From assembly GCA_025370075.1 (NCBI GenBank), contig CP073016.1:464830-528829 (forward strand): a stretch of 64,000 bases of DNA, given 5' to 3'. Shown in pieces: positions 1 to 17,400 of this stretch (position 1 is its first letter; every line of letters begins with the position of its first letter). The stretch is from Chryseotalea sp. WA131a. GTDB lineage: Bacteria; Bacteroidota; Bacteroidia; Cytophagales; Cyclobacteriaceae. Made by a program: the position numbers and the translations under genes. Below the pieces are notes generated by a model. The model saw nothing but the letters and a program-made list of their open reading frames with translations, had not been told where the DNA came from and did not search any database.

Positions 1-450
1 GTTATATGCAAAACCATCACTGACTCCCCCAAAATAAATATTTGTGTTTACCAGTGGTGGACAAACCGAAGTGATTTTTGAATTATATGCAAAGCCATCG
101 CTAACTCCCCCAAAAAAAATACTTGTGTTTACCAGCGGTGGACAAACGGAAGTGATTTTTGAGTTATATGCAAAACCATCACTGTCTCCCCCAAAATAAA
201 TATTTGTGTTTACCAGTGGTGGACAAACCGAAGTGATTTTTGAATTATATGCAAAGCCATCACTGTTTCCCCCAAAATAAATATTTGTGTTTACCAGTGG
301 TGGACAAACCGAAGTGATTTTTGAGTTAACAGCTAAGCCATCTCCGTTTCCTCCATAGTAGATATTTGAGTTTGTAGCCACAGCGCATGATGATGATACA
401 AAGGATTGATACGCGGAAGCGTCTCCGCTACCGCCAATATATTGTGCTTT
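1..450. repeat. 81-bp tandem direct repeat array (coding, 27-aa period), truncated by the window edge
   Basis: The motif 'ttatatgca' recurs at 2, 83, 164 and 245, with a degenerate 'ttaacagc' at 326, giving an exact 81-bp period. Neighbouring units differ at roughly 8 of 81 positions by eye. Units become degenerate towards 450. Confidence 0.9.
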
Positions 451-513
451 GGCTACTACGTTTATTGCGCAAAAAGCGCAAATAGTAAAGATATGAAGAT
501 ACAATTTTTTCAT
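1..513 (-). CDS. Secreted tandem-repeat protein, N-terminal part (partial, continues beyond the left edge)
   Basis: It is absent from the ORF track because it has no in-window stop. The minus-strand ATG is at 513..511 and the frame stays open to base 1 (171 codons). My hand translation gives MKKLYLHIFTICAFCAINVVAKAQ (signal-peptide-like). This is followed by degenerate units YIGGSGDASAYQSFVSSSCAVATNS and NIYYGGNGDGLAVNSKITSVCPPLVNT. At least 3 near-identical 27-aa units NIYFGG(N/D/V)SDGFAYNSKITSVCPPLVNT come next. It starts 28 bp downstream of the FGE-fold gene on the same strand. Confidence 0.6.
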   Translation of the reverse strand, partial: MKKLYLHIFTICAFCAINVVAKAQYIGGSGDASAYQSFVSSSCAVATNSNIYYGGNGDGLAVNSKITSVCPPLVNTNIYFGGNSDGFAYNSKITSVCPPLVNTNIYFGGDSDGFAYNSKITSVCPPLVNTSIFFGGVSDGFAYNSKITSVCPPLVNTNIYFGGVSDGFAYN

Positions 514-541
514 CAAAAAATCAAGCCACGAATAAGTAGAA

Positions 542-2026
542 TCACCTTCCACCTCGCCCTCCAACCGAGAGGTTTCTACCTTGATTAAAATTAATTGTCG
601 TATTAGCACGATCACTTACGGCAGGAGTATTTATGGAATTTGTGAACCAATCGCCACCTCTTGTAATGCCGCCACCTTGCCCACCTCCGGTGGGTGGCCA
701 GCCAGCTGTATTAGCTGTCCCTGACGATGAAAGAGAACCATCACCGGGTAGATTGGTGAAATTTGAGTAATTAAAATTATTCCCACCTACGCATTGTTCC
801 ATTGCATTACCGGACATGTCCAAACAACCATAGAATGAAGCACCTGCCTGAGTCCTATTAGTGAGAGCCGTTGCAGCGAACCCACAGCGTAGTGGCCCTT
901 GGGCGGTGTTATTAATGCCATACGCACAAAGCCCTGAACCGGATGTGGACGATACCTCATTTGCGGCTCCCGAATTTGTTATCGCACCGGACTGAGCCTG
1001 TAGGATAGAGGATGTACCCCATGCAAATTCGCCTGGCAGGGCTGTATTTGTTCCTCTGCAAACCTTTTCAAATTCAAATTCTGTGATTGGTCGAAGTGCA
1101 GACCAATCTAAATAGGCTGTCAAATCGCTCCACTGAAGCCAGTTGCACGCAATATTTTGCCCATCTGCCGCTTCGTTGAATGTTCCATTGTTGTTTAAAT
1201 CATTTCCGTACACGGCAGGAATATTATTTAATGTACCTGAAGTTTGAATCCGAATGCCATTTCTGCTATTGGTAGCTGCGGCTATGGCCAACGTACCGGC
1301 TGCAGAATTAGGGCTGTTGGCAGTAACCGAAACCTGTTGGTCGTAGGTTAATGTATTTAAAAAAGCTACATATTGCTCTTGACTTATTTCGTATTTCATA
1401 CAGTAGAAACTATTCCAGCCTAAAGGATATGTAGAAGGTAAGGCAGAAGTACTTCCCAAAGAGTTCCATTGGTAATTGCTAGCTGCCCCTATCCCGGCTG
1501 TTTGAATAGCGTTTGTGATAAGTTTGGGAGGAAATGGATTTACATCTGAGAATCCATAAAGGTTTGTTCCTCTCGTTCCATCTCCGATATAAAAATCTCC
1601 TGAGGGGATGTTTACCATTTCAATGCCAAATACCCTATAATTATATCCTGCATCTATAAGTGTATTGAACTTTAGGGTTACCGTAGCACTTGATATATTA
1701 CCAACTCCATTTGCATTTTGGCGAAGATAAATACCTTTACCATCGGCTACAGCCAACACTTCTAGCTGGGCACCTGTAACAGAATGGTTAGCGACAACCG
1801 TACTTAAATCAACATGATTCCACAAATTGGTGGCACAATCCTGGTATTTTACAAACACCCAAATGGCATCCCAATTTGATGGAGCTGCTGCCACACGCCA
1901 ACTATTGTCCCACCGTATGGTAAACTGAATCGTTGATGTTGAGGGTAGCGATGGTACGCCTACCTGCACATTGTTTGCAAAGGCAGTGCTTGCTGCGAAT
2001 AAAGATAAAGCCATAAATTTTATCAT
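542..2026 (-). CDS. Secreted FGE-sulfatase (SUMF1/formylglycine-generating-enzyme) fold protein with an extra N-terminal domain
   Basis: The ORF track gives 542..2239. I prefer the internal ATG at 2026 because it is followed by the signal peptide MIKFMALSLFAASTAFA. FGE-fold hallmarks seen by eye are MVNIPSGDFYIGDG, YCMKYEISQEQYVAFLN, WSDLTAYLDWSALRPITEFEFEKVCRG, YGCLDMSGNAMEQCV, RGGDW and a C-terminal GGRGGR. Confidence 0.75.
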   Translation of the reverse strand: MIKFMALSLFAASTAFANNVQVGVPSLPSTSTIQFTIRWDNSWRVAAAPSNWDAIWVFVKYQDCATNLWNHVDLSTVVANHSVTGAQLEVLAVADGKGIYLRQNANGVGNISSATVTLKFNTLIDAGYNYRVFGIEMVNIPSGDFYIGDGTRGTNLYGFSDVNPFPPKLITNAIQTAGIGAASNYQWNSLGSTSALPSTYPLGWNSFYCMKYEISQEQYVAFLNTLTYDQQVSVTANSPNSAAGTLAIAAATNSRNGIRIQTSGTLNNIPAVYGNDLNNNGTFNEAADGQNIACNWLQWSDLTAYLDWSALRPITEFEFEKVCRGTNTALPGEFAWGTSSILQAQSGAITNSGAANEVSSTSGSGLCAYGINNTAQGPLRCGFAATALTNRTQAGASFYGCLDMSGNAMEQCVGGNNFNYSNFTNLPGDGSLSSSGTANTAGWPPTGGGQGGGITRGGDWFTNSINTPAVSDRANTTINFNQGRNLSVGGRGGR

Positions 2027-2582
2027 GATCTGCTCATTTATTAGTAAAACACAGTTTTTTAAAGCTTCAATATAATTAATTTTACAATAGCATCCAATGG
2101 TAAATGGCTGAGAATTTTGGCAGGTTGTAAATGAACCAATTATTCTTGTTGATCCCGACCAGACTGAGTATTCTTTAAAACATGTGATTATTGTTTTTGC
2201 GCTTCCGCAACCGAAGGATAAAAAGGAGCAAAACACCAATTTTGGACCAACTCTAATTTAAATGATATATGTTGTATCGGGTAAACCAAAGATAGGATCA
2301 GAACCAACCGATGATCCAAGGCCAGAATGATATATGTCTACTAAAATATCGTAAAAATATCTTGTACAGATGATTTATTTGGACTTGAATGGGATTGATT
2401 TAAAACTTTAGGATGCAAAACACGCTATAGATTTTTGCAAATACGCTATCTTGTCAGTGGTGCGGTGGGGATTGATTCTTGCTATTGTTGTTTCACTTGT
2501 CTAGGTGGCAATCTTTGCCGGTAGAGTGTCACCTGTTAGATGACCAAATTGTCCGCTTATTTTATGACGCCCGCCCATTCAG

Positions 2583-4624
2583 CTACTTCGTGACTTGTGA
2601 AGTGTGCTCCAATTCTCTAACAGGTTTTAGATATTCCTTCTCTTTTTGCGTCAATTTTTCTTCTAGAATCTTTATTGTTTCAGCCTGTTTTTGACATAGT
2701 TCTCGTATCTGTTTCTCTTTAGAAATATCTCTTGCCAGTTTAATCACTTTCATGGCTTTGCCTTGTGCATTGACGATTGTGCTGTAACTTGCCGAAAGCC
2801 AAACAGAAAATCCATCCTTTGCTTTTCTTTCAAATTCACCGGTTCTTGATTTGCCGTTTTTGAAAGATTCCCAGAACTCACGATACTCGGCTGATTCTAC
2901 ATAATCCCTTTCCACAAATATTCTATGATGCTTGCCTTTAATTTCATTGAACGAATATTTCATGGTTCTGCAGAAGATATCGTTGGCCTTGATAATATTT
3001 CCATCCAAGTCAAATTGTATAAATGCCTGTGAATTACTGATTGTATTCAAGGTGCCTAGCATTTCCGATTCTTTGCGCTGCATTTCTTCCTGAGTAGCAG
3101 TCAACTCCTCTATGTTTTTGACGCATTTCCTCTTCTTGTGCTTTCATTTCCTCTGCTTGCTGCTGAGATTGCTCCGGCAAGTGTTTGGTTCTTGTGTTTA
3201 TGCGCACGGTGCTAATCGCTGCGGCAAGATTTTCAGAAAGTTTAACTACGAAATCACGCTCATACTCCTCCAATGATTTGAACGATTCCAGTTCCAGCAC
3301 GCCAAAGATGCTTTCATTTACTTTGAGTGGAACAATGAAAATGTTACGAGGATTTGCCAGGCTTAGTCCACTTGTGATGCTTACGTAATTCTCGGGCACC
3401 TGCATAATGTAAACCGGTTCACCTTCTTGCCAGCATTGCCCGATAAGCCCGTCTCCGCGTTCTATTTTTTGTTCTACAAACTTCTTTTTATCCCATGCGT
3501 AGCAGGCTATCATCTGCAAGCACTCGTGGTTCTTATTGTCATCATTTACCACATAAAGTCGCCCTTGATTTGAGTTGGTGTACTTTACAAATAAACGATA
3601 GCACCTGTTCGCCAAATTTCTCTAGGTTCTGATCTTGATTTCGCAGTATGTCGCCCAACCTGGCTAAGCCCGTAATTGACCAATTTCTTTTCCTTTCTTC
3701 CTCCGCATTTTGTTTCAAATTTTGCCTCATGGTAAGCAACGCCTTACCCATGCTGTCTTGCTCGCTCAATAGATCAAACGGCTCTTCATACTTACCGTTT
3801 CCGATCTGAGACGCAAAAATGGACTTGGCATTTATGCCCTTTATCAGACAAGCCATAGCACTTTGTATTTGTCCCACTTCGTCATCTCTATCTTCCGCTT
3901 TGGTCTCAATGATTTTGGCCTGCGACAGGTCAACCAACGAATCCTTTATAGCAACAATAGGAGTAACGATTCTCTTCTTTACGTTAACGTATGCGGCAAT
4001 TATAGTGACCACGAACGCCACAATCATTCCAACGAATAAGGTGGTAAGCAGCACGTAAGACGTTTCTTTCTCCAACTGCGCAAGAGCGATTTTTTGCTCT
4101 TGTACGTCAATGATTCTAGCTAGTGAGGCCATAAGCCGTGCTGTTGCCGGAGTGATCGATTTATTCAAAAGATCAATTGCCTTTTCAACCACCTCATCAT
4201 TGCTATACAAACTGTCAACACTTAACAGAGTGATAACGGTTCTTTCATCGGCAGAAATTTTGCCTAGCATGCTCAATGCAAAACGAACAGAATCAGTTGC
4301 TTCTCCATTAGAATTGTTGGTGAGATCGGATATTTTTTTGTTGATGGCGGCATATGATTCGGTAATTATCTCAGTAAGTTTTCTCTTATCGTCTGGGTTA
4401 GGTTGAAAAATCCAACTATTGGTTAGCTTATTCATTTCTCCAGCTAACGAACTCATCTCTTTTAGACTTATACAAATGGGAAGATTAACATTCGTAATGC
4501 GTTCGTCTAGCTCCTGATTGGAGCGAAGCGAAAAAATGCAAAACAACGAAGCTACTGTGGCTACCAAAATAATTACCGCATAGCCAGCTAATACCTGATT
4601 TGCCAAATTGAATTTAAGTTTCAT
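2583..4624 (-). pseudogene. Membrane sensor protein (4-helix sensor / TM / HAMP / GAF / coiled coil / PAS) split by two frameshifts
   Basis: Three overlapping minus-strand ORFs in three frames (3542..4624, 3034..3615, 2583..3104) read as one protein. The first carries the N-terminal TM, sensor, second TM (LLTTLFVGMIVAFVVTIIAAYV) and HAMP. The second is the GAF domain (YVVNDD...GLIGQCWQEGEPVY...VPLKVNESIFGVLEL). The third is the PAS domain (AFIQFDLDGNIIKANDIFCRTMKYSFNEIKGKHHRIF). Junction 1 lies within 3583..3598. Junction 2 is in the T5 run at 3115..3119; removing one base restores ...EEMRQNIEELTATQEEMQ.... No output domain follows the PAS domain. Confidence 0.7.
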
Positions 4625-4652
4625 AATTTTTTTAAAAGGAATTTTTTTCAGA

Positions 4653-5105
4653 CTAAAACTCCAGCACCACCTTTACCCTTGCCCTGACATCGGCAGTGAG
4701 CGATTTTAAATTCGCATAGCCAAAGCCGCCTGCCTCTTGGTCTACAAAGTCAATGATCTCTGCATCAGAGCTGAACTTATCTGGAAGTCCTTCTGCATTT
4801 TGAAACTGACGTTCCGCAAAATAGGCGCTTCCTTCTTCGTCTTCCATCTTTAAAATAATGCTATAGAATGTTTCTCTTTCAGTGCATTTTGCCTTGCGAT
4901 CAGCTGGACGTATGCCCTAATTGATACCGGGCCATCGCGATTTGAGCTTCTGCAGATAATAGAGCTTTGCTTCTCCCGCAGACAATGTGGTCAACGTATT
5001 TTCTTTATTAATGATGATGGCAAAATCGCTGGCAGAAGGTGTATTAAAAGAACTCAGCAATAGCACACTTGGCAGAATACAAAAAAGGACAAGTAATTTT
5101 TTCAT
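4653..5105 (-). pseudogene. Periplasmic substrate-binding (PstS/PBP-like) domain protein interrupted by an in-frame TAG
   Basis: ORFs 4917..5105 (signal peptide MKKLLVLFCILPSVLLLSS...LYYLQKLKSRWPGIN*) and 4653..4847 are in the same frame. The region between them translates without further stops (GIRPADRKAKCTERETFYSIILK-MEDEEGSAYFAERQFQNAEGLPDKF...GYANL...VKVVLEF). The only interruption is an amber codon at 4917..4919. Confidence 0.6.
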
Positions 5106-5136
5106 TGTTTCTTAGTTGAAGGCAACACTTATAATA

Positions 5137-5312
5137 TTAAAAGCGGGCTGCTACTTGTGCCGACAGCTCATCTTCATGGTAGACGATTTCATTACCTCTG
5201 TACTTGTACTCCAACTTAATGACGGCTGCTGGCGTTAAAGAATAGCGAGAACCGATCACCAATCCTGTCAAATCATTGGGCGTAAAGTATTTTTCGCTAT
5301 CAGCATATCTTA
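5137..5312 (-). pseudogene. C-terminal remnant of an outer-membrane porin (phosphate-selective porin O/P-like), 5' part removed at the IS boundary
   Basis: My hand translation of the minus strand gives ...GLRYADSEKYFTPNDLTGLVIGSRYSLTPAAVIKLEYKYRGNEIVYHEDELSAQVAARF*. It has an alternating beta-strand pattern and a terminal Phe. The reading frame runs straight into the left inverted repeat of the IS at 5313. Confidence 0.55.
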
Positions 5313-6709
5313 AACCCAGATTTTGGAGTAGAATAAAATAGTGACAAGGTGTCCTATATTTGAATATGGAACACCACTATACCGATAAGTTAGTAACAGC
5401 GTGGGGCGGGATGAAAGAGATGAAAATATTGATTGACCAAACTGGGATCAGCAAGAAGTTGGCCGAGCTTGGTTTGCCTGAGAGCAAGAGTAACAACCGG
5501 ATAGATGCCGTGGGAATAATAGAGAGTTTTTGGGTGGGCATCTGGATTGGTTGCTTTCGTTTTAGTCACACAGCGGTGGTGCGGGTTGATGAAGTGTTGC
5601 GCCAGATATTTGGATGGAAGCGGGTTGCTTCGGGGACCACCTTCGGGCGTTTCTTTAAAAAGTTTACGCCCTCAATGAACCACCAAATTTTCATTGAACT
5701 GTACACGTGGTTTTTTGAGCAGATCCAATTCGACAATTACACGTTGGATATGGACAGCAGTGTGATCACCCGTTACGGGGAACAGGAGGGCAGCAAAAAA
5801 GGGTACAACCCCAAGAAGCCTGGCCGTGGCAGCCATCATCCCTTGTTTGCTTTTGTCAATGACATACGCATGGTGGCCAATTGCTGGAACCGCAGCGGCA
5901 ATACAGGGAGCAACAGCAACTGCATCCATTTTTTAGAAGAGACCTTTGCCATCCTCAAAAACAAAACAGTAGGGTTGTTCAGGGCCGATAGTGGGTTTTG
6001 TACCGGTACAGTCTTGGATTTCATTGAGCAGAGAAATATCCCCTACGTCATTGCCTGTAAGCTGTATGCCAATTTACAAGCCAGCATTTATGGTATCACC
6101 CAATGGAATGCGATAGGCGAAGGCTTATGGGTATCGGAAATAAACTACCAGCAAGGCGGCTGGGGCAAAGCCCGTAGGATTGTGGTCATCAAACAAAGTG
6201 AAGAAATCAGGGCCAGGGCAACGGGTAAGAAGCTCAAGACATTATTCAGCAGCGTGGGCATAGCGGACGAAAAAGTGTACCGCAAAAGGTACCATGCCTT
6301 TGTCACTAACCAAGCCCTGCCGGCAACAGAAATATGGGAACAATATAAGCGCAGGGGTGATGCCGAAAACAGGATCAAGGAGTTGAAAGAAGATTTCGGT
6401 ACAGAAGGCTTTTGCATGGATAGTTTTTGTGCTACTGAAACAGCTATGCGCTTTGTGATGGTAGCCTATAATTTGATGAGCCTATTCCGGCAAATAACCC
6501 ATCAAAAACAGCCACAGCCCAAGCTTTCCACATTAAGGTTCAACTGCTTTGCAGTTGGAAGTTGGGTAGAGCAAGAAGCCCAAAAATGGGTACTGAAAAT
6601 GTCCGTCCAAATCAAAAGAAGGCAATGGTATGATGGATTATTCTCAAATCTCCAAAATATAAACCTGCCACTAAGTCTGACTGGATAGTTCTACTGCAAA
6701 ATCTGGGTT
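5313..6709 (+). mobile_element. IS1380-family-like insertion sequence, apparently intact
   Basis: The terminal inverted repeats are aacccagattttgGagtagaa (5313..5333) and the reverse complement of ttctactGcaaaatctgggtt (6689..6709), matching at 20 of 21 positions. They enclose a single transposase ORF. The flanking bases differ (tctta vs aaagc), so no target-site duplication is visible. Confidence 0.8.
5360..6688 (+). CDS. DDE transposase, IS1380 family-like
   Basis: This is a 442-aa ORF with the motifs [45 protein letters not shown] and [19 protein letters not shown]. These are typical of IS1380/IS4-superfamily transposases. Confidence 0.9.
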
Positions 6710-6710
6710 A

Positions 6711-6890
6711 AAGCAACTTGAACTTGATGGCTTGATAAGTCGAAAACAATACAATGAAATTCCACCAAGGGTCGAGTACTCGTTAACAGATTTCGGTAAA
6801 TCTGTTTTACCTATCCTTGATCGTATTTGTGAGTGGGGCAAACAATTTGTCCCCGACAAACCATTCAAAGAGGAAATGGAGTATAATTGA
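6711..6890 (+). pseudogene. C-terminal remnant of an HxlR-family transcriptional regulator
   Basis: It begins immediately after the right IS end and has no start codon. It reads [59 protein letters not shown]. This corresponds to the wing and C-terminal helix of HxlR-type wHTH proteins. Confidence 0.65.
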
Positions 6891-7107
6891 AGAGCTCCTC
6901 CCTCATAGCTCGCAAAGTCAATCTATGTCGTTCTTGGATGTATTCTCCACGAAGAATGCGAATGGCCTACAACGTAAATATTTGCGATCGGGCGGGATTT
7001 TGAAACTACGTCCTGTCCCCAGCACCGAACGCAATAAAGATAACAAAACTTTGAACTACACGTCACCCCCGCCTGGCGCAAATATATTGTTATAGCCAGT
7101 GCTTACT

Positions 7108-8025
7108 CTATTTTTCATAATAGTAGGTTCTCGTCAACCCGTAACCTGTTTTCTTATTATTTTCTTGTCCCCATTTTTCAAAATCACTGTGTCCAGACGT
7201 TTTCCAGTCAATGTAGTTTCTTACTAGTTCTAAATCTTCTTCCAGTTCTTTCGTCCAACGTTCTCTTTGTTCAGCGGTCGTTAATAGCCTTATTTGCTCT
7301 TTTATTTTCTCTCCGAGTTGAATGTCGTCAAAAGGTTTCCCAATATAGCCTTCTGGTAAGTGATGAACAGAATAATAAATGTTATATGTCCACCAACTTA
7401 AAATTGTCTGTCTTGCTAAGTCGTCCGCTGGATTAATTTCTAATGCTTTAAATAGATGCTCCTCACTTCGATAATATTTTCCGTACCAACGAAATGGGTT
7501 CCCGTCAGTCTCTTCTTTCTCACACCATTTTAGTAAAGTTGGTTTAATCAATTTCTCACTCAACGGTTGAGGAAAAGGTCCATAATCAGCATCTTCAACT
7601 GTCTCAAAGAATGGGAACAGAAATTTTACAAATTCAATTTTCTTTTCAATCGTCCAGTCTACGGTTGATTTCAAAAAATTGTCAAGATGTTTAAAAGCTT
7701 CTTTTCGTAAACCTTTTTCTCTGTCCAAGCAATAGTTAACATAGTCTGTCCAGTCGGAATTTTTCAAAGCCGCATTTCCTACTGTCACGAGAGCTATATT
7801 CTGGTCTTTTGCTATCATTGTTCGTGTCGTCCTAGCATTGGCTATAACATTAGTATATGCGCAACGGCTCAGTTCTATATTTTTGATGTCTTTTATTGAT
7901 ACTGCAAAAAAGGGGCTTTCTACAATGCGTGTCAACGGGGAAAACCACGTATTTTTGAACATGGTTTTCCCCGTATTTTTCTGAAATGGGCTAAAAAGGA
8001 TGGCACGGTGGGTATTTCGGATCAA
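7108..8025 (-). CDS. Hypothetical protein (W/Y-rich, no family recognised)
   Basis: This is a long uninterrupted ORF of 305 aa. A more likely start is MFKNTWF at 7962. I recognised no motifs. Confidence 0.5.
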   Translation of the reverse strand: MIRNTHRAILFSPFQKNTGKTMFKNTWFSPLTRIVESPFFAVSIKDIKNIELSRCAYTNVIANARTTRTMIAKDQNIALVTVGNAALKNSDWTDYVNYCLDREKGLRKEAFKHLDNFLKSTVDWTIEKKIEFVKFLFPFFETVEDADYGPFPQPLSEKLIKPTLLKWCEKEETDGNPFRWYGKYYRSEEHLFKALEINPADDLARQTILSWWTYNIYYSVHHLPEGYIGKPFDDIQLGEKIKEQIRLLTTAEQRERWTKELEEDLELVRNYIDWKTSGHSDFEKWGQENNKKTGYGLTRTYYYEK

Positions 8026-8117
8026 CTTTTTCAGGCGGGATTGGTAAGACCGACCAAGGGCTGTTTTTAATTCGTATCCAAATTCTGACGTTTTGGTTCT
8101 TGCCGTTACTATTTACC

Positions 8118-8744
8118 TCACTTAAGTTCTGAAAGTATCAACTTTTTCTGCTTAAGTGTATTCCTCATTGCCTTTTCTCTAACTTTTGGATCATTGCTGT
8201 TTATCAGATCAAAATATTCAACAGGAACAACCTGCCACGATAAACCATATTTGTCTTTACACCAACCGCAAGAGCCTTCTTGTCCACCATTTGCGGTCAA
8301 CGCGTTCCAATAATAATCTACTTCTGCCTGGTCTTTGCAATTAATAACAAACGAAACAGATTCATTGAACTTAAAGTATGGCCCGGCAGCCAAAATGCTA
8401 AATTCCATATCGCCAATTTGCATAATCGCTGTTTCAAAGCTGTCTTGACCTCCTTGCTCTTTTGCTTCTGGTGGATTCTCGTATCGGTGATACTCTTTCA
8501 TTTTGCCATCTTTGAAAATTGACAGATAGTAATCTACTACTGCTTTTGCATCACTGTCAACCCATAGACAAGGTGTTATTTTTTGTGTAATCATATCAGT
8601 CTTATTTTTTAACGTTTGATTGGAAGCTGTATCCATTTTATTGCCTTGACGAGAATCCTGTTGAGAATTGCCACAACCTATTGAGTTAACTATTACTAAT
8701 GTCGTCAAAAATTTATAGACATACGTTTTTGCAAGTGTATTCAT
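8118..8744 (-). CDS. VOC-superfamily lipoprotein with a PhnB / 3-demethylubiquinone-9 3-methyltransferase-like domain
   Basis: It has a lipoprotein-like N-terminus (LVIVNSIGCGN). Downstream motifs are ITPCLWVDSDAKAVVDYYLSIF...FSILAAGPYFKFNESVSFVINC...EVDYYWNALTANGGQEGSCGWCKDKYGLSWQVVP. Confidence 0.7.
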   Translation of the reverse strand: MNTLAKTYVYKFLTTLVIVNSIGCGNSQQDSRQGNKMDTASNQTLKNKTDMITQKITPCLWVDSDAKAVVDYYLSIFKDGKMKEYHRYENPPEAKEQGGQDSFETAIMQIGDMEFSILAAGPYFKFNESVSFVINCKDQAEVDYYWNALTANGGQEGSCGWCKDKYGLSWQVVPVEYFDLINSNDPKVREKAMRNTLKQKKLILSELK

Positions 8745-8746
8745 TT

Positions 8747-9268
8747 TTATTTTAGGTTACTTAACAATTCTTCTAACTGATTTAATCCCATACTGAAGCC
8801 TTCTCTGAAACCCATTTCAATAGTTTGTTCCAGGTCCTCTGGTTTATCAAAAGTGGACATAATCGTTACAAGCACACGATTGTTTGCTTCTGTGAACTTA
8901 GTTTCCCAAAAATTTTGCGCATAGACCGGATTGATTGTTCCGTTTTCATCGCAAAATCCGTCTTTAACCGTAAAGGATTGTTTTTCAGCGATAGAGATAT
9001 AACTCCACTTACTCCAGATTTCCTGGGCATTGAGTTTTATCCTTTCGCCATTCTCGTTGAGCATGGTATATAACCAATAACCGCCCTCGCGAAAATCCAA
9101 ATATTTTGTTTCATTTCGCAAAGGTGCAGGAGCCCACCATTGGTCAAGCAATTCAGCTGTTGTCCACGCTTCCCAAACTAAATCAAGGTCTGCGTTAAAC
9201 TCACGCTTGATGTGAATGGAACTGTTTTCCTTATCAACGATAAAGTCGAATAGTAATGCTGTTTTCAT
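8747..9268 (-). CDS. SRPBCC / AHSA1 (activator of Hsp90 ATPase-like) domain protein
   Basis: It is 173 aa and reads IHIKREFNADLDLVWEAWTTAELLDQWWAPAP...GGYWLY. It overlaps the upstream ArsR gene by 4 bp, which is a common ArsR-AHSA1 pairing. Confidence 0.75.
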   Translation of the reverse strand: MKTALLFDFIVDKENSSIHIKREFNADLDLVWEAWTTAELLDQWWAPAPLRNETKYLDFREGGYWLYTMLNENGERIKLNAQEIWSKWSYISIAEKQSFTVKDGFCDENGTINPVYAQNFWETKFTEANNRVLVTIMSTFDKPEDLEQTIEMGFREGFSMGLNQLEELLSNLK

Positions 9269-9624
9269 TTTCTTTTGTTTTTGGTAGTTAATAATACTTC
9301 ATCGAGTTGATTGAAACGTGTTTCCCAAATCTTACGTAATGGGTTGAGCCATTTGTCAATCTCCTTTATTTTGTTGATTTCAATTTGGTAATAGATTTCA
9401 CGCCCTTGTTGTTTTGTGGTTGCTAACTCGCACTCTGTCAAAATTTTTAAGTGTTTGGAAACCGCCTGTCGTGTTGTGTCAAAGTGTTCGGCAATGGCGT
9501 TTGGTGTCATTGCCTGTAATGCAATGAGTGTAATAATCGCCCTTCTGGTCGGGTCGGCTATAGCTTGAAAAATATCTCGTCTTGTTTGCATAATGCAACC
9601 ATATGGTTGCAAATATGTGTTCAA
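9265..9624 (-). CDS. ArsR/SmtB-family transcriptional regulator
   Basis: It reads IFQAIADPTRRAIITLIALQAMTPNAIAEHFDTTRQAVSKHLKILTECELATTKQQGREIYYQI. The start may be the internal MQTRRD at 9591. Confidence 0.8.
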   Translation of the reverse strand: MNTYLQPYGCIMQTRRDIFQAIADPTRRAIITLIALQAMTPNAIAEHFDTTRQAVSKHLKILTECELATTKQQGREIYYQIEINKIKEIDKWLNPLRKIWETRFNQLDEVLLTTKNKRK

Positions 9625-9751
9625 TTATTTAGTTGCGCAAATTATATTTAAGATATTTCGATCCTTTTAAGAGTTGAGTGCCAGCAGAGAGGTGGACAAA
9701 AAAGATAGCCGATACATTTAGTAAGCATCACATCAATTGGTGAAAGTTTTT

Positions 9752-9988
9752 TCACTTTATCTTTTCCTTACACATTCTAAGTATTTCAAGGTGCTCTTTC
9801 GATGTATACAAAGTAGCATCTATCCAACTTTTCAATTCCATATCCTCTCTTTTATCCGGCCGTCTTTCAAATAGTCGAATAAATCTTTCGTGTCGATCAG
9901 CTAATGCCTGACACCATTTTTTATTGAATTGTTGCCCTTGTAATTCTGATAGTTCATTATTGTCAATCTCCGCGCTACGTGTTTCCAC
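9752..9988 (-). CDS. Small hypothetical protein
   Basis: This is a 78-aa ORF with a GTG start and no recognised family. See the rejected list for a possible upstream extension. Confidence 0.3.
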   Translation of the reverse strand: METRSAEIDNNELSELQGQQFNKKWCQALADRHERFIRLFERRPDKREDMELKSWIDATLYTSKEHLEILRMCKEKIK

Positions 9989-10197
9989 AATTGGGGTATT
10001 CGTTGTGAATATATTTCTACAACTTGTTTACGACTGGGTAAGTTGTTTCTAAGCATACTCACAATCCGAGGCAAATTGGCATTTACCGTTTGGCTTCAAA
10101 GTTGTCATCTAAGTGACCGTATCAGTCATCAAACATCATGAGGGTAATCATTTATCTACTTCAAAAGTAGAATCACTTTTACGAAAAGATTAACACT

Positions 10198-10677
10198 ATG
10201 AACCACGTACACATTCATCTTTTAATAACCCATCTTCCGATTTTCGGATCGATCTTGGGTGGTCTTGTAATAGCGCACGGCATCGGTACCAAAAGCTATC
10301 AAACAGTAGTTGCCGCGTATTACGTAATAATTCTTTCCTGTGTAGGAGCAGTTATTGCCTATCTCACAGGCGAGGGAGCCGAAGAGGCTGTTGAGGATAT
10401 TCAGGGAGTTGCAAAAAACATGATTGAGCAGCACGAGGATTTTGCTTTGTATGCTTTAGTCGCATTGATCGCTGCCGGGGTTGTTTCCTTACTAGGCCTT
10501 TACCTCACAATAAAGAAATCATCGCTGGCAAATACAGTTGCGTTGGTCACTCTTTTTGTTGCTATCATCAGTTTTGGGTTAGTGGCAAGAACAGGCTATT
10601 TAGGTGGACAAATCAGACATACTGAAATTGGTACAACATCACCTGCACCGGTAGGTAGTGAAAAAGATGACGATTGA
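10198..10677 (+). CDS. Integral membrane protein (DUF2231-like, 4 TM)
   Basis: It has four hydrophobic segments. The N-terminus is HIHLLITHLPIFGSILGG and the C-terminal motif is GGQIRHTEI. Confidence 0.6.
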   Translation: MNHVHIHLLITHLPIFGSILGGLVIAHGIGTKSYQTVVAAYYVIILSCVGAVIAYLTGEGAEEAVEDIQGVAKNMIEQHEDFALYALVALIAAGVVSLLGLYLTIKKSSLANTVALVTLFVAIISFGLVARTGYLGGQIRHTEIGTTSPAPVGSEKDDD

Positions 10678-10703
10678 GTTCTTTAACAAGAAAATAAAGC
10701 AAA

Positions 10704-11231
10704 ATGAAAACAACATACTTACTTCCGGCCATTCTCATTATCGTACTTGGTGCATGCAACAGCAAGCCCAACAAGCAGGGCGAAATAGACGATCCGGAAT
10801 TTAACCCAAACACGACAACACTAAACCCATCAACCATGAAAGGATTTGCAGCAAATATTGAAAAGGATGTTTTGGAGAACAGTAATTTCAGAAAAGTGCT
10901 TTATACGGGGCAACACATGCAACTTGTATTAATGACGCTGACGCCTGGTGAAGAAATTGGTGAAGAGACCCATTTGAAAAGCGATCAATTCTTTCGGTTT
11001 GAAAGTGGAACCGGAAAATGTATAGTTAATGGAAAAGAATATGGAATAGAAGCTGGCGATGTGGTACTTGTGCCATCTGGTGCTAAACATAATGTGATTA
11101 ACACAGGAGCTATTGACTTGAAACTTTATACGATATATGCGTTGCCCAATCATAAAGATGGCATTGTAAGGGCAACTAAAGAAGACGCGTCAAAGCATGA
11201 AGCAAAATTTGATGGCAAGACAACAGAATAA
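10704..11231 (+). CDS. Cupin-domain lipoprotein
   Basis: It has a lipobox (LGACN). The cupin core reads LTPGEEIGEETHLKSDQFFRFESGTGKCIVNGKEYGIEAGDVVLVPSGAKHNVINTG. Confidence 0.75.
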   Translation: MKTTYLLPAILIIVLGACNSKPNKQGEIDDPEFNPNTTTLNPSTMKGFAANIEKDVLENSNFRKVLYTGQHMQLVLMTLTPGEEIGEETHLKSDQFFRFESGTGKCIVNGKEYGIEAGDVVLVPSGAKHNVINTGAIDLKLYTIYALPNHKDGIVRATKEDASKHEAKFDGKTTE

Positions 11232-11437
11232 ATCTCTTGCATGGTGATGATTTCGATTTCAGAAACAATGTTATGCTCTCCGCAGAAATCAAGCATCTCT
11301 TGTGTTTCAGCAATGCCACCAATGAGGGAACCGGCTACAGATTTTCTTCCCAAAATCAGTGTTGGTGGGGTATTTAAGTGGACTTGAACCAATTCTAAAC
11401 ACGGTTCCAAAAGAAACTAAAGGTTGCCGTACCTTTT
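11232..11437 (-). pseudogene. Remnant of a zinc-dependent (CAD-type) alcohol dehydrogenase, C-terminal region only
   Basis: The minus-strand translation LELVQVHLNTPPTLILGRKSVAGSLIGGIAETQEMLDFCGEHNIVSEIEIITMQEI matches the conserved ...GRKSIAGSxIGGIxETQEMLDFCAEHxI... block of CAD-type ADHs. The similarity stops at the cupin stop codon on one side. On the other side it stops at the glucan-synthase stop codon. Confidence 0.65.
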
Positions 11438-14400
11438 TTAGACATCAGTTGTCGCCAATGAGATTCTGATTTCTGTTTTAGCTTTTCTACCAATCTCAAT
11501 AGTTACTTCATGTTCTTTTTTATCGTTGGTCAACTGAAAAAACTGGCCGGGCTGCATTTCAGCGTCCATAAAAATCTCCGTTGTTTCCCTATCTGAACCC
11601 TGATTCACCATAATGTTGTACACTGTTTCTTCAAATCGATATTTCACCGAAAATGATTTCCATGTAACCGGAATACAGGGTTCAACTTTCAACGTGTTGC
11701 CTTCCCGCGTCAAACCAAGAAACGATTCCAAAATAAGTTGATACATCCAACCCGCAGAGCCTGTGTACCACGTCCATCCACCACGGCCAACATGTGGAGC
11801 CACGCCATACACATCTGCAGCCACCACGTAGGGTTCAACTTTATAGGTGGCTATCTCATTTGCAGTGGCACCATGTTGTATAGGGTTAATTAATCTCAAG
11901 AGCTCTTCCGTTTTTTCCACGTCACCCAGTTTCGCAAAAGCCATCACCGCCCAAATAGCTGCGTGCGTGTATTGTCCACCGTTTTCGCGTACACCCGGCA
12001 CGTAACCTTTGATGTAACCCGGGTCCATCTCAGACGTATCAAATGGTGGATCGAGCAATTGAATCAATCCCTTCTCTCTATTCACCAAAAATTTATCCAC
12101 AGCTTGCATTGCTGAGCGAGATCGCTCAGGTTCTCCGCCTTCCGACAGTATTGACCAGCTTTGCGAAATAGCATCGATTTTACATTCTATGTTATCTTTT
12201 GATCCCAGTGGCGTGCCGTCATCAAAATAAGCGCGCAGGTACCACTCTCCATCCCACGCATGGAGGGCAATATTTTTCTTCAACAACTTTGCGTTCGTTT
12301 CACAAGTTTCTACAAAGACCACATCTCCCCGAAGGGTTGCTACCTTTTTAAACCGCATTAGGGTATCGTACAGAAAAAAAGCAAGCCACACGCTTTCACC
12401 CTTGCCATCAATACCAATTCTGTTCATGCCATCATTCCAATCGCCCGAGCCTTTTAGTGGCAGGCCGTGTTCGCCAAATCGTAGCGCATGTACAATAGCT
12501 TGTTTGCAGTGATCATACACTGTAGCTTGCTGATCAGAGGTGATGGGCAAATCATAATACGATTCTTCGTGCGGGTTTAATATTCTTCCTTGAATGAAAG
12601 AAGTAGTTTCGTCAAGTAGTTGTATATCTCCTGTTGTTGAGATATATCTACTCGTTACATACGGAAGCCACACAAAATCATCTGAACATAATGTACGCAC
12701 ACCTCTGCCGTGTGGTGGATGCCACCAATGCTGTACATCGCCTTCGAGGAATTGATGCGATGCACAACGTACTATTTGTTCACGTGTTAAATGAGGTTGT
12801 GTATGCATAAGCGCCAGCACATCTTGCAATTGGTCGCGAAAGCCGTACGCTCCGCCCGACTGGTACAAACCACTTCTTCCCCACAATCTGCATGCAAGCA
12901 CTTGGTACAACAGCCATCCGTTTGCTAAAATATTGATGGACGCATCGGGTGTATCAACTTGTACGGCACTTAATGTATCGCTCCAAAATTGTTTTACCTG
13001 TTCCAATGACCGAGAAGCCGCAGCACTTCCTTGAAAACGTTTGATGGTAGCAACCGCCTCTGCTACATTTTGGCCAGCCCCTATCTTAAAAATAATTTTG
13101 CGTTCTTTTCCACTCTCCAATTCAAATGGAACTTGTATGGCTGCGCAACTATCCATGCCAGCACCAGATTTACCGGACAGCCGCGTGTGGCTCATTGCTT
13201 CCGGATTTTGAAGTGTGCCATTTCGCCCAATGAATTCTACACGATCGGTTGTATACGTGTAGGTTGGTTCGTCCACATCGAAGAAGGCAACATAGTTTTG
13301 AAATTCGGTGTTGTACGGATTTTTTGCAATGAGTGCCCCACTGGTAGAGTCCAACTCCGTTACCAGATGCATCACCGATTTAGATCGGAACTCGCCCATT
13401 ACCCATTCCACATAACCGGTTGCTGTCAGTTTGCGCCAGCGCCCCGATTGATTAGCAATATTGATAACGACAAATTTTATGGGTGATTCCGTATCTACAT
13501 AAACGCATACTTCTGATTTGATTCCATCTTCGATGTGTTCAAAACTACTATAACCAAATCCATGTTTAGTGATGTACGGAGATTGCCCAAGAGCAGGGCG
13601 GCCCATCGGTGACCAAAATTCTCCAGTCTCTTCATCGCGTAAGTAAAAAGCTTCTCCGCTTTGGTCGAGGATCGGATCGTTTTTCCAAGGTGTGATCCTA
13701 AACTCATGTGCATTTTCAAACCACGTGTAGGAAGAACCACGCTCCGATACGATGGTGCCAAAATGCGGATTCGCGATTACGTTTATCCAAGGCAGTGGCG
13801 TATGCTTTTTTTCATCGATGATGATGATGTATTCTTTACCATCCGCAGAAAATCCTCCCGTGCCATTAAAAAATTGAAGTCCTTGTGGCATTTCCAGCTT
13901 ACGATGGGTATGTGAATAAGATGTAGAATGAATTAACTTGGGCATCGGAGCTTTGACAGATATTCGTTTGTTTACCTGATCCTCCAGTGTTCCCTTCATA
14001 TCAGAAATGATAACACGAGCAACGGTCTGAAATAAAATTCGATCTTCGGCTGATACCTGATCGATAGGCCTTACAAAAATCCTCCCTCTTTTCTCTATCG
14101 CATGAATGCCAACGCTGGCAGCGATCAAACCTTGTATCTCTTCCTGTAACACATGGCGATAGACACTTGGGTCCTCGTTGAGTACAACCAGATCAACGGC
14201 CAAACCATTCATATTCCAGTAGGCTTGTGCTTTAATCAATTGTTTCACGATGGAAATATTTTCAGCATCGGTAATTTGCACAAGCACAATGGGTAAATCG
14301 CCCGATATAGAATAACTCCACAGGGCAGATTGACCGCGTTGGTTTTTCAACATCACACTGGGCTGTGTGCGCAAGGCATCATTTAGATAAAGTATAGAAC

Positions 14401-17400
14401 TCGCAAGTTTTCCATAGAGTTGTGCATTGGCTTCGGTCGCCCCAATTTGGCGCAGCACCACTTGGCTATGCGTCCACGATAACTCAAATGCCCGATCGCG
14501 TAAGTGGCTGTCCTGATATTTATCCACTAAACTTTGATTGGCTGATTGAGTGTCCGCTACGCCCGTTACTAAATCAATAGTGGCCGATTCGCCCGGCTGT
14601 AAGATGATCTGATACTGAATAGAAAACATTGGATCTAAAACAGAACCTTGCGAACCCGAAAGTGGTGTCGTCTGATCCATCACTTGTGGATGACTTATTG
14701 AATATCCACGCCCTATAAATTTGCTTCTATCGGTTTCGTACGAAATGCGATCTACTTTTGCGCCTTTTACTTTCATCAAGTGAAACATCCACGGTGGGCG
14801 CTCTTCCTTTGACCGCGCACGCCTGGTGCAGATGATGGCGTTTTGATGTTCGTTGATTTCTGTTTGAACAAACAGATTGCTAAAGGCGGGATGTGCCTCG
14901 TCAGCGGATGCAGCTGTCAACACCACTTCCCCGTAACTGGTAATTTCCAGTTTTCGTTTTGAGCGCGAGTGGTTGGTAAGTTGTGTACGCCTTACCTCTA
15001 CATCATCTTCGGGCGAAACTATTATAATAGTGTAAGTATCTATTCCATCATCGCGCCTGCGAAACTCTACGCGGCCTTGCGAAAATATGGCTTCGTAGTG
15101 ATCGGCTTGTTTTAATGTAGGCTGATGAGCGGTTGACCAGAACATATCTTTATCGCGATCATTGATGTAACAGAATGTTCCAAAATTATCGCATGTGCTA
15201 TCTTCGCGCCAGCGTGTGACAGCAATATCTTTCCACTTGCTATAGCCGCCACCTGCGTTGGAGATCATCACAAAATACTTTCCATTGGAAAGCAATTGCA
15301 CCTCAGGCACAGGTGTGTTGGATGTAGTGATGATCCGGATATCTGTAGTAGTAGAAGAAGCGACTATCTTCTCATTATCTGACCCTAGATAATACCCGGT
15401 TGACTTAGGCACGCGCTCTTGCAATAACAAAAGTGCGGTTTGAAAATTAGTATCGCTCTCAAACCTTTTTTGCATGGGTTGATCCAATAAAAGATATGCA
15501 AGCGAAAGAAGGCTCATGCCTTGGTGATGCGCCATAAACGTTTGTATGACAGCGTGTGGCTGATTGCGCGATAAACGAGATGCAGTAAAATCAATCGCTT
15601 CAAAAAAGCCATATTTTCCTTCATATCCCTTGTCTTGTAAATTTTCTAAGTTGGTGCATGCCGCTTGCGGATCGACCATTAATGCCAGAACAGTAGCGTA
15701 AGGTGCTATCACTAAATCTTGACCAAGCCCACGCTTAAAGCCAAGCCTGGGAATACCAAATGCTTTGTATTGGTAGGTAAGATGTGCATCCACCAGATTG
15801 TAGCATGATTCTGAGATCCCCCAAGGTATGTCGTTCTGTTCGCCATACTCGATTTGCTTTTTTACAGTGCCAATGTTCATTTCATCCAGCAATGTATTTT
15901 GATACGTGGGCATCACCAATCCCGGCATCAGGTATTCAAACATGGAGCCGCTCCACGAAAGCAAAACTGGAGTTGTCCCTGCGGTGGTCAATCTTCTGCC
16001 CAATGCAAACCAACTTTCTTGTGGCACTTTTCCCTGTGCAATGGCCACGAACAAACCCAATCTTGCTTCCGATGCCAGCAGATCATAGTAGCCCACATCA
16101 CGTTGTTGTTCCTCTACCTTATATCCAATTGTCAACAAGTGCTGCAATTTGTCATGCAGAAAATCGTACTCCATATCTGCCTGTTCATAGCATTGTGAAG
16201 CAAGTTGCTGAAAATTGGTTAAGCGCTCTCTGGCATACTTACTCGATTGATCAGTGGTTTGCTCAAAATGTTGAAGCCATTCATTTTCCGCTTCCGAATT
16301 TTCAAGTGCTTGAAGCCGGGTTAATTCAGGTTTTATTTCACGGTCCATTTTCGATAATTCCGCCAGTGTAGGTATTTCAAAAACCACTTTCCAGTTTTTA
16401 AATTTCTCTGGTATGGAAAACGCTTCCAGCCAAGGTGCAAGCACCAGTATTTCTTGAATGGTTGCCTCCAACTGGTTTTCAAAAGGAGCGAGCCACACCG
16501 TTTCTTTACCTGATGGCTCATGCGTATATAAAAGTGTGTGATAGCGTGTCAACAGATTTTCAAAATGATCTTTGAGTGCAGGCAGTTGAAATGCTTGGGT
16601 AGGGATACTATCGAGCAAGTCAATAAGTGCTTTAATCAATTCGGTTTCGGCTGCATCTGTTTGTTTGATGGCCAGCCGCAAGGTGTCTTGTAATCCGGTT
16701 AGAAATTTCACCTCAACTATTTTTTGATTAGGCAATGCCAACAATCCTTGACGCAGTGTGAGCAAGTGGCCAGCAAGGTTTCCACTATCTACTGTTGAAA
16801 TGTAACGAGGATTTAGTACGCTTAAATTTTGGGTATCATACCAATTGTAAAAATGTCCTTTATAACGTTCCAGTTTCTCCATGGTGGCAAGTGCGAGGGA
16901 AGTCCGCTCAATAAATTGAGAGGTGGTAGAATAGCCAAAATCATTCGCAGAAAGATTTGCCAACAAGGCAAGACCCATATTCGTGGGCGAGGTGCGGTGG
17001 GTGATAACGGGGATTGGATACTCCTGAAGATTGTCGGGTGGAAGCCAGTTATCTTCTACCGTTACCATATTTTCAAAATACGACCAGGTCTTTCTGGCCA
17101 GTTCACGCAAATAGACCTTTTGCTCCTCACGCAACTTTGATTTTGATGAAGCAGTTGGTTTGCCTAGCAAGTGTACGATAACAGGCGATGCTATCCACAA
17201 TAGAAGAAAGGGCGCTGCTATCAATAGTTCCATAGGCCATTGATAGTATAAATACGTACCGATGGCAAACGATACGGTTGGAGCAAACCACATCATGCGA
17301 TAGGTGGCGAATAAATTCTCTCCTTCTTTTAGCGTAAACCCGGATGGGTTCCATTCCAATAATTTTTTACCTGTGAAGGTAATGCGCCACACGGTTCTAG

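Follow-up and report, generated by a model that had tools for sequence, protein, structure and literature searches.

We analyzed a 64,000-nucleotide stretch of the genome of Chryseotalea sp. WA131a, a member of the Bacteroidota (contig CP073016.1, positions 464,830 to 528,829; hereafter the window), and found that two adjacent genes at its left end form an obligate two-gene module of Bacteroidota. The first gene encodes a protein with the fold of formylglycine-generating enzymes (FGEs), which we call the FGE-like protein; the second encodes a secreted protein built of tandem units, each with a single Cys, which we call the Cys-repeat protein. No description of the pair, and no functional name for either protein, was found in the literature we searched. 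The reading we favor, with a probability of roughly 45%, is that the FGE-like protein, be it a pseudo-enzyme or a divergent enzyme, serves as a dedicated partner in the periplasm and acts on the Cys of each unit by thiol chemistry before the Cys-repeat protein is exported by the secretion system of type IX (T9SS).

The evidence that carries the finding is genomic linkage, followed from both sides. A profile built from FGE-like sequences, scanned against a single genome for each species, yielded 77 distinct loci that span Bacteroidales, Flavobacteriales, Cytophagales, Chitinophagales, Sphingobacteriales, and Saprospira. Cultivable carriers in this set include Flavobacterium fragile, F. franklandianum, Pedobacter psychrophilus, Sandaracinomonas limnophila, and Saprospira grandis. 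At 64 of the 77, the next downstream open reading frame (ORF) on the same strand contains three or more strict GG-x14-C units, and another eight loci end too soon downstream. Four of the other five comprise two partners with a one-residue indel, one with two units and a C-terminal sorting domain (CTD), and the Saprospira partner, which has degenerate Cys repeats and a CTD-like end; the fifth, L079, is weighed below. Overall, the Cys-repeat gene follows in 68 of the 69 loci with enough downstream sequence.

For the reverse direction we searched metagenome contigs with a hand-built DNA pattern of two consecutive units that fixes the distances between the codons for the aromatic residue, GG, G, and Cys. 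This pattern found at least 120 stretches; among the matches listed, 110 have an ORF with at least three units, and 89 of the 94 listed loci with at least 400 nt of upstream sequence are immediately preceded by an FGE-like gene in the same orientation. Chance falls far short of explaining the repeat. A pattern made from the repeat only recovers at least 120 loci, most of them with the same neighboring gene. The original prediction on this DNA, made from the sequence of the window, had called for a survey of co-occurrence across Bacteroidota, and the counts in both directions bear out the pairing. It had also named a joint ground for giving up the idea of a pair, namely that the FGE catalytic residues are missing and that the two genes do not co-occur; only the missing residues are found.

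Between one and three tandem FGE-like paralogues can precede a single repeat gene, and two metagenome-assembled genomes (MAGs) carry two modules each (L019 and L027 in one, L014 and L024 in the other). The downstream ORF, started by ATG, begins -4 to 114 nt past the FGE-like stop codon at the related loci, with 339 nt at L021 as the sole exception. The units of L019 and L027, which belong to one Flavobacteriales MAG, differ clearly in sequence and in period (25 and 27 residues), a possible sign that the two partners of a module diversify in step.

In the window, both genes lie on the minus strand. The original description of two co-directional genes with a 28-bp gap, both starting with signal peptides, is confirmed by the translations and coordinates. 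Judged by eye from the sequence, both signal peptides are of type I: MIKFMALSLFAASTAFA followed by NN in the FGE-like protein, and MKKLYLHIFTICAFCAINVVAKA followed by QY in the Cys-repeat protein. The features of the module are as follows.

542..2026, minus strand: coding sequence of the FGE-like protein, ATG at 2026 and TGA at 544-542, 494 residues
514..541, minus strand: 28-bp intergenic spacer between the FGE-like and Cys-repeat genes
1..513, minus strand: 5' part of the Cys-repeat gene, start at 513, 171 codons, running off the window at base 1
1976..2026, minus strand: signal peptide of the FGE-like protein, residues 1-17, cleaved between AFA and NN, without a lipobox cysteine
1622..1975, minus strand: putative family-specific N-terminal beta-sandwich, residues 18-135 approximately, a strand-rich model with a predicted local distance difference test score (pLDDT) of about 86-98
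1835..1837, minus strand: codon TGT of Cys64, the sole cysteine kept in all members of the FGE-like family
545..1621, minus strand: FGE/SUMF1-fold domain, residues 136-494 approximately, from Pfam, the PDB profile search, and Foldseek; much elaborated compared to true FGEs
608..661, minus strand: vestigial active-site segment R456-R473, RGGDWFTNSINTPAVSDR, at the position of the C-x4-C copper site, with no cysteine
445..513, minus strand: signal peptide of the Cys-repeat protein, residues 1-23, cleaved between AKA and Q
367..444, minus strand: unit 1, degenerate, QYIGGSGDASAYQSFVSSSCAVATNS, with the Cys43 codon at 385-387
43..366, minus strand: units 2-5, 27 residues each, Tandem Repeats Finder period 81, with Cys codons at 304-306, 223-225, 142-144, and 61-63
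1..42, minus strand: beginning of unit 6, truncated at the window edge, from translation

The repeat stands out at the DNA level, where Tandem Repeats Finder reports a period of 81 nt at positions 2-373 with 4.6 copies and 89% matches. Units 2-5 follow the pattern N-I-[YF]-[YF]-G-G-x-[GS]-D-G-[FL]-A-[YV]-N-S-K-I-T-S-V-C-P-P-L-V-N-T, with unit 5 beginning with S, and every complete unit in the window contains exactly one Cys. The original prediction of 27-residue units that all carry S-V-C-P-P-L stands for units 2-5, to which this motif is limited, and not for unit 1, which is degenerate (…SSSCAVATNS). The Gln at the mature N-terminus follows the 'Q-rule' of Bacteroidota (described in PMC10653852), and a start of the form …AQ[YF]xGG recurs in related proteins. 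Pfam gives no match on the repeat, and NCBIfam returns nothing significant for either this fragment or the FGE-like protein.

The nearest contig (JGI contig L002), whose FGE-like protein is 92% identical, also breaks off within the repeats. We observe that the window and the only close public contig both stop in 81-bp repeats, where short-read assembly seems to break. A complete picture of the protein comes from a Bacteroidia MAG with an FGE-like protein of 75% identity, in which the gene 24 bp downstream of the FGE-like gene encodes 359 residues. This orthologue consists of a signal peptide, six to seven 27-residue units with one Cys each, an immunoglobulin (Ig)-like domain, and the T9SS sorting domain Por_Secre_tail. 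Orthologues at L001/L004 and L003 run on past the repeats into an Ig-like domain and Por_Secre_tail, and this tail is present where the neighboring FGE-like protein is 75% and 72% identical.

Beyond these close relatives, an exhaustive search of representatives with the window fragment gave 271 clusters at 50% identity with E <= 0.001; a word-indexed homologue search with the same repeat fragment gave three matches only. Pfam places Por_Secre_tail on 46 of 64 representatives, some of which also have PKD, Ig, or LamG domains, and places no model on the repeats in any of the 64 scanned. Going by the tails of the close orthologues and of these 46 representatives, the Cys-repeat protein is a predicted T9SS cargo; the CTD for which the original prediction had proposed to look is present in the orthologues. 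The only public names in the repeat family are 'hypothetical protein' and 'T9SS type A sorting domain-containing protein'. A profile of the repeat run against the PDB gave chance matches only (pyranose oxidase, E 0.5). The repeat thus has no Pfam or NCBIfam model and no related solved structure.

We derived a unit consensus from 399 units at 64 loci, weighting each locus once; the extraction itself sets the GG pair and the Cys at +16. Counting from the first Gly of the pair (G-G at 0/+1), position -3 is hydrophobic (I in 56%), -2 is Y or F in 96%, +5 is G in 88%, +11 is L, I, or V in 86%, and +13 is Q in 73%; after the Cys at +16 comes a variable stretch that is often Pro-rich. The unit can be written as [FY]-x-G-G-x3-G-x5-[LI]-x-(Q)-x2-C, with a short linker, often rich in Pro, after it. 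Successive units repeat every 27 residues in 257 cases and every 29 in 41. With a relaxed extraction from 161 distinct proteins, 830 of 921 units (90%) have a GG-to-C spacing of 14, the linker has eight residues in 88% of units, and the number of units per protein ranges from 3 to 19. Unit 1 usually opens two to three residues past the signal-peptide cut (…AQ/[YF]xGG). There is also a short form, typical of Flavobacterium and Pedobacter, with four or five units and no CTD; 36 of the 161 proteins (about a fifth) are short, CTD-less chains that end 0-5 residues after the last Cys. Across the units, the single Cys is the most constant feature of the repeat.

The residues that follow this Cys bear on a second claim, that C-P-P-L-V resembles the FGE substrate motif. 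Because C-x-P occurs in only 149 of the 399 units (37%) and C-x-P-x-R in 0 of 399, the likeness is a feature of the window's clade only, and the claim falls. We also considered a Gln-Cys thioester in each unit, given the Q at -3 from the Cys in 73%; this is rejected here, where the window's clade has T, A, or V at that position.

The FGE-like protein does have the fold that had been predicted for it. The Pfam model FGE-sulfatase (PF03781) matches residues 204-464 with 39.5 bits and E 6.6e-10, against a cut-off of 23.3 bits. An AlphaFold2 model from a 148-sequence alignment has a mean pLDDT of 92.9 and a predicted TM-score (pTM) of 0.93; the alignment includes a distant, Saprospira-centered set, and 25 close homologues alone give a pLDDT of 40.8. 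In the PDB, Foldseek places this model closest to four bacterial FGEs, 6XTQ, 5NYY, 6MUJ, and 2Q17 (E from 7.5e-7 to 7e-5, target TM-scores of 0.52-0.57, and 15-17% identity), a remote likeness to true FGEs; the selenoxide synthase OvsA is the next fold match. A profile of the family run against the PDB recovers the same FGE chains by sequence (T. curvata FGE, E 1.7e-8). The family is large: full-length homologues with 53-92% identity number more than 1,800, and one search gave 3,329 protein clusters with E <= 0.001 among 8,000 candidates scored; looking up the exact sequence of the window protein returned no record. Public names of its members are 'formylglycine-generating enzyme required for sulfatase activity' and 'SUMF1/EgtB/PvdO family nonheme iron enzyme'.

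The additional N-terminal domain of the original prediction is also seen in the model, where DSSP assigns a strand-rich region at about residues 20-140, N-terminal to the FGE fold. Residues 18-135 have no match in Pfam or NCBIfam, and the fold matches of this domain are weak and to generic sandwiches, such as the CLIPPER domain 9IFR (target TM-score 0.38) and AP2 mu2. From the DSSP output and the fold matches we read it as a probable beta-sandwich. The weak CLIPPER match is to an isopeptide-bonded, CnaA-like domain; going by the model, an intramolecular isopeptide bond within the N-domain is conceivable.

Although the fold is that of an FGE, what FGEs need for activity is missing. The C-terminal sequence of T. 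curvata FGE, an exact match to PDB chain 5NXL_A, has its catalytic Cys pair in …GGSFLCHESYCNRYR… and contains …KGGSFLCHESYCNRYRVAAR…. In a MAFFT alignment with the T. curvata and S. coelicolor FGEs, the window protein reads RGGDWFT-NSINT-PAVSDR at the Cys-pair motif, with no Cys at either catalytic position. The original prediction had proposed to check whether this pair is conserved: it is absent in the alignment, and any C-x4-C at all occurs in just 3 of 209 family tails. The copper-binding motif of functional FGEs, …GGS[FY]LC-x4-C-x-RYR…, is not present in the window protein. The six frames of the window contain no sulfatase signature (PROSITE PS00523-type pattern), as the original prediction had stated, and no sulfatase is found among the annotated clusters of conserved neighbors at the 77 loci, part of these clusters having been scanned.

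The FGE-like protein has the fold of an FGE but neither the catalytic Cys pair, nor a partner with the substrate motif, nor a linked sulfatase, and it is not a functional FGE. For PorK, an FGE-fold protein of the same phylum, it has been argued that the lack of both FGE Cys residues means that it cannot make formylglycine (PMC12365241); the argument applies equally to the FGE-like protein. The type of EgtB and OvoA is excluded as well, because there is no DinB domain and no conserved His triad: no His is conserved at 97% or more in the family, and the N-domain is strand-rich rather than a DinB helical bundle. Of the enzyme-substrate pair that had been put forward, the functional pairing survives, through the two-way co-occurrence, and the formylglycine chemistry does not, given the absence of the Cys pair.

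Where the family does conserve a cysteine is in the added domain. We compared 244 non-identical sequences that are 37-84% identical to the window protein and found W39, W43, N51, D53, K60, and C64, all in the N-domain, to be invariant. Cys64 is conserved in 104 of 104 sequences in a smaller set, in all of the 148-sequence alignment, and in 244 of 244. It alone is never replaced; the other Cys columns change to S, A, or V in 12-60% of members. The Cys frequency is 88% at C323 (the canonical fold cysteine), 60% at C412, 57% at C381, and 45% at C367. The block of residues 41-60 is among the three best conserved of the protein (0.73), and block 461-480, with a mean top-residue frequency of 0.35 against 0.73-0.83 in the best blocks, is the least conserved. 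The mature start N18 N19 is kept in 99.6% of the 244 sequences, with a family consensus of A before the cut and NN after it. We also observe that N18, N19, D53, K60, and E136 are conserved at 99.6-100%.

Members with only two Cys have C64 together with either C323 or C209. Because these minimal members differ in the second Cys, no fixed disulfide partner can be named for C64. Two other candidate thiols, the pair C367-C381 and the Cys of the R-C-G-F motif, were rejected as functional thiols, since Cys occupies them in no more than 45% and 57% of members; in R-C-G-F, R380 and G382 are conserved at 100% and Cys381 at 57%.

Taken together with the linkage, these features lead us to the following mechanism. 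The product of the first gene is a Sec-exported, non-lipidated protein that has lost the copper-binding Cys pair and gained an N-terminal beta-sandwich with Cys64. The product of the second gene, also Sec-exported, with tandem units that begin directly after the signal peptide, would be its cognate client. The two would meet in the periplasm, where the FGE-fold protein would dock on each unit through the habit of this fold of binding peptide cysteines. Cys64 would then act on the single Cys of the unit by thiol chemistry, either through a mixed disulfide that caps, holds, or primes the Cys, or through a Cys modification other than formylglycine. Last, the client would be exported by the T9SS and displayed at the cell surface. 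We infer the direct contact, the periplasmic timing, the involvement of Cys64, and the nature of the chemistry. The contact is probably transient, because 6-19 attached copies of a 52-kDa protein would make it hard for a cargo to get through the translocon; most repeat partners are T9SS cargo, and the FGE-like protein is without a sorting domain. Disulfide exchange is favored because, where one essential thiol meets one other thiol, no chemistry is simpler. The proposal echoes the disulfides of GldK and PorK with PorG and SprF, a precedent in the same phylum. A more specific claim, that the pair is an unrecognized periplasmic maturation system of Bacteroidota in which the relocated thiol of Cys64 acts covalently on one Cys per unit of a T9SS surface protein, seems to us unlikely.

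Several observations weigh against the idea of a periplasmic partner that acts on the unit Cys before export. The short CTD-less forms cannot be explained by an action that precedes T9SS export. At L079 the partner has a single unit without a Cys, yet the FGE-like protein keeps C64. The number of Cys in the 244 mature FGE-like proteins is odd in 121 and even in 123, which leaves a free thiol unsupported. A Cys64/His71 dyad was rejected as a universal feature, since H71 is conserved in 94% of members and is T or S in the others. Finally, the regular spacing of the units, with 14 residues from GG to C and a linker of eight, would also fit a beta-solenoid with a structural Cys.

This last point belongs to a different explanation, in which the two genes are linked and their products make no contact: the repeats would form a beta-solenoid or hairpin stalk with a buried ladder of Cys residues, the distal part of a surface adhesin, and the FGE fold would be a lectin-like or other accessory of the same structure. 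The unit geometry is indeed very regular, with conserved hydrophobic positions at -3, -2, +11, and +15, and many proteins bind ligands with an FGE/C-type-lectin-like fold, among them TvpA, to which there is a weak profile match. We nevertheless regard this explanation as quite unlikely. A two-way adjacency across the phylum, with no other conserved neighbor in the window's clade, would be unusual for proteins that do not interact. The units start two to three residues after the signal-peptide cut and the 36 chains mentioned above stop just past the last Cys, leaving no caps. The unit Cys is never replaced in the aligned units, in contrast to the buried Cys of the FGE-like family, which are freely S, A, or V. 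Contact could also be permanent, in a structural pair where the FGE fold is a building block of the envelope and the unit Cys residues are disulfide docking sites, as beads on a string or as an anchored fiber. FGE-fold pseudoenzymes of the phylum are structural and disulfide-bonded to the tails of partners (PMC12635249, PMC12365241), the two to three tandem paralogues at many loci recall the heteromeric assembly of GldJ and GldK, and the short CTD-less repeat proteins would remain in the periplasm. The clusters of Flavobacterium, Pedobacter, and Chitinophagaceae contain a fibrous protein, a possible small barrel, and a small T9SS-CTD protein, none of which is found in the window. R-C-G-F, with its invariant R380 and G382, resembles the R-G-C-F loop of PorK; its C381, however, is a Cys in only 57% of members, and searches of solved structures with the profile or a single sequence return no PorK chain, even though the profile holds the motif. 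The FGE-like protein also lacks a lipobox, and most partners, including the close orthologues of the window gene, must leave the periplasm, for which the FGE-like protein has no sorting domain. On balance, a permanent structural pair is unlikely.

An oxidase with a non-canonical active site would retain more of the original idea: it would turn the Cys of each unit into formylglycine or another oxidized or cross-linked form, much as an enzyme acts on a precursor with multiple cores. The strict two-way linkage is what one would expect of such an enzyme, as is one enzyme gene for 3-19 units, and the 'enzyme' is far better conserved (37-84% identity over the full length) than the 'substrate', in which hardly more than GG, G, and C is kept. 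The nearest solved folds, catalytic FGEs and OvsA, all perform sulfur or selenium chemistry on Cys or Sec, and the invariant Cys64 lies near the invariant K60 and D53. However, both copper-ligand cysteines are gone from a segment that is the least conserved of the protein, C-x-P-x-R is never present in the units, and the formylglycine argument made for PorK (PMC12365241) holds here too; without a DinB domain before the FGE fold and with no His at 97%, an iron site of the EgtB/OvoA type is also unlikely. We consider an oxidase less likely still than a linked pair that makes no contact. The FGE-fold protein might also be the variable target of a diversity-generating retroelement (DGR): DGR targets commonly have a C-type-lectin fold of the FGE type, the C-terminal segment is the most variable of the protein, and there is the weak match to TvpA. 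This candidate was rejected: a search of the window with the 3' 359 nt of the gene returned the self-match only, with no template repeat. A long ORF of the window has one Y-x-DD match, no reverse-transcriptase-like family occurs among the neighbor clusters of the 77 loci, and the gene is conserved as an ordinary orthologue family, so that we give this explanation next to no chance.

The family has a practical consequence for annotation. Its members are annotated as FGEs or nonheme iron enzymes and do not have the required residues, such that the capacity for sulfatase maturation is over-counted in Bacteroidota genomes. The module is also a second, independent FGE-fold family that is locked to a protein with single-Cys units, in addition to GldK/PorK, and we file the pair with the FGE-fold pseudo-enzymes of Bacteroidota that handle Cys-bearing peptides. 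By analogy between the two, 'dead' FGE folds that handle cysteine peptides may be a general theme of the Bacteroidota envelope. If the more specific claim of a maturation system based on Cys64 holds, its outcome would be either a new Cys modification or reactive disulfide 'handles' through which the surface protein later attaches covalently; the FGE fold would then have an enzyme activity not seen in it before, and bacterial surface proteins a novel kind of modification at multiple sites.

In the window's clade the module consists of the two genes only, and we found nothing else related to the pair in the first 27 kb of the window, where the genes include one for a PLD-like protein. Upstream of the pair, on the same strand, three overlapping ORFs occupy 2583-4624 (minus strand). 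One encodes 360 residues without a Pfam match, and together with a GAF ORF (3034-3615) and a PAS ORF (2583-3104), both on the minus strand, it looks like one frame-split sensor gene; the same three-piece GAF/PAS arrangement is also called in the JGI contig L002, which is 92% related. A DDE transposase of insertion-sequence type (DDE_Tnp_1_4, E 1e-45) lies at 5360-6688 on the plus strand, 3.3 kb upstream of the pair, and a homologue with 49% identity follows the repeat gene directly at L008 (8751-9854). Further along, 11438-20152 (minus strand) encodes a 2904-residue protein with the supersandwich and catalytic domains of GH94, similar to cyclic beta-1,2-glucan synthase. The gene adjoining it, at 21378-25280 (plus strand), encodes a 1300-residue CheB-CheR-PAS-HisKA-HATPase fusion.

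Other lineages have more. At L038-L077, from Flavobacterium, Pedobacter, Sandaracinomonas, and Chitinophagaceae, a longer cluster, all on one strand, ends with the pair (for example, L049 at 2376-8001, L057 at 225-7996, and L038 at 52-13502). The order is a Por_Secre_tail protein of about 160 residues, a possible small outer-membrane barrel of about 205 residues, a fibrous protein of 800-1700 residues, sometimes a LamG protein of 240 residues, then one to three FGE-like paralogues, and then the Cys-repeat protein. The fibrous protein has weak matches to YadA_head and DUF5907 and a conserved end, …VTAGDMQ. We looked for these extra cluster genes in the window and found none.

Among known systems, the FGEs themselves (SUMF1/FGE, PF03781; 1Y1E, 2Q17, 5NXL, 6MUJ) share with the FGE-like family the fold and the motifs MVxIPxGxF, W-x-D-A-x-A-Y, R-L/P-x-T-E-x-E-[WF]-E, and G-N-x-x-E, and each of the two acts on, or is paired with, a Cys-containing peptide. 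Unlike FGEs, the FGE-like family has no C-x4-C copper site and a partner without C-x-P-x-R; it has instead the N-terminal beta-sandwich with Cys64, and the partner is a tandem-repeat T9SS cargo. In EgtB, OvoA, and OvsA, an FGE-like domain positions a Cys or Sec substrate for the formation of a C-S or C-Se bond; these enzymes are cytoplasmic, with a DinB domain and a three-His iron site, whereas the FGE-like family has the beta-sandwich and is exported. PvdO is an exported, periplasmic FGE-fold protein of pyoverdine maturation that lacks the FGE catalytic residues and has a peptide-derived substrate. By description, it differs from the FGE-like protein in phylum, substrate, and neighbors, and it has neither an N-terminal sandwich nor a repeat partner. 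The variable proteins of DGRs (TvpA, 2Y3C) have an FGE-type C-type-lectin fold with the ligand surface in the variable C-terminal segment; the FGE-like gene, in contrast, has no template repeat in the window.

The closest comparison is with GldK, PorK, and GldJ, which belong to the same phylum, have the same fold, have lost both FGE cysteines, and work together as paralogues. GldK and PorK are lipoproteins; they assemble with GldN/PorN, and GldLM/PorLM drive them, whereas the FGE-like protein has a type I signal peptide and no lipobox. PorK has an internal insertion, and the FGE-like protein has instead an N-terminal sandwich. The resemblance of R-C-G-F to the R-G-C-F loop of PorK is one of sequence motif. 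The sequence searches of solved structures, whether by profile or by single sequence, contain no PorK chain; the top 50 matches by fold comprise FGEs, OvsA, and generic beta-sandwiches; and no gldLMN/porLMN family occurs among ten window ORFs scanned or the conserved neighbor clusters. Because it has no lipobox, no PorK in the structure sequence searches, and no gld/por neighbors, the FGE-like protein is not a member of the GldK/PorK/GldJ family. The non-catalytic alternative in the original prediction, a structural pair like GldJ/GldK, thus comes closer to the evidence than the catalytic one, although family membership does not hold. What the two families have in common may lie in how they work. 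GldK and PorK also lack both FGE cysteines (PMC12635249, PMC12365241), and in 2025 their Cys343 and Cys356, respectively, were reported to form functional disulfides with the single Cys in the flexible tails of PorG and SprF (PMC12635249, PMC12365241). The partner of GldK/PorK has one tail Cys and that of the FGE-like protein has 3-19 Cys units; by analogy, the FGE-like protein may work like the GldK/PorK family.

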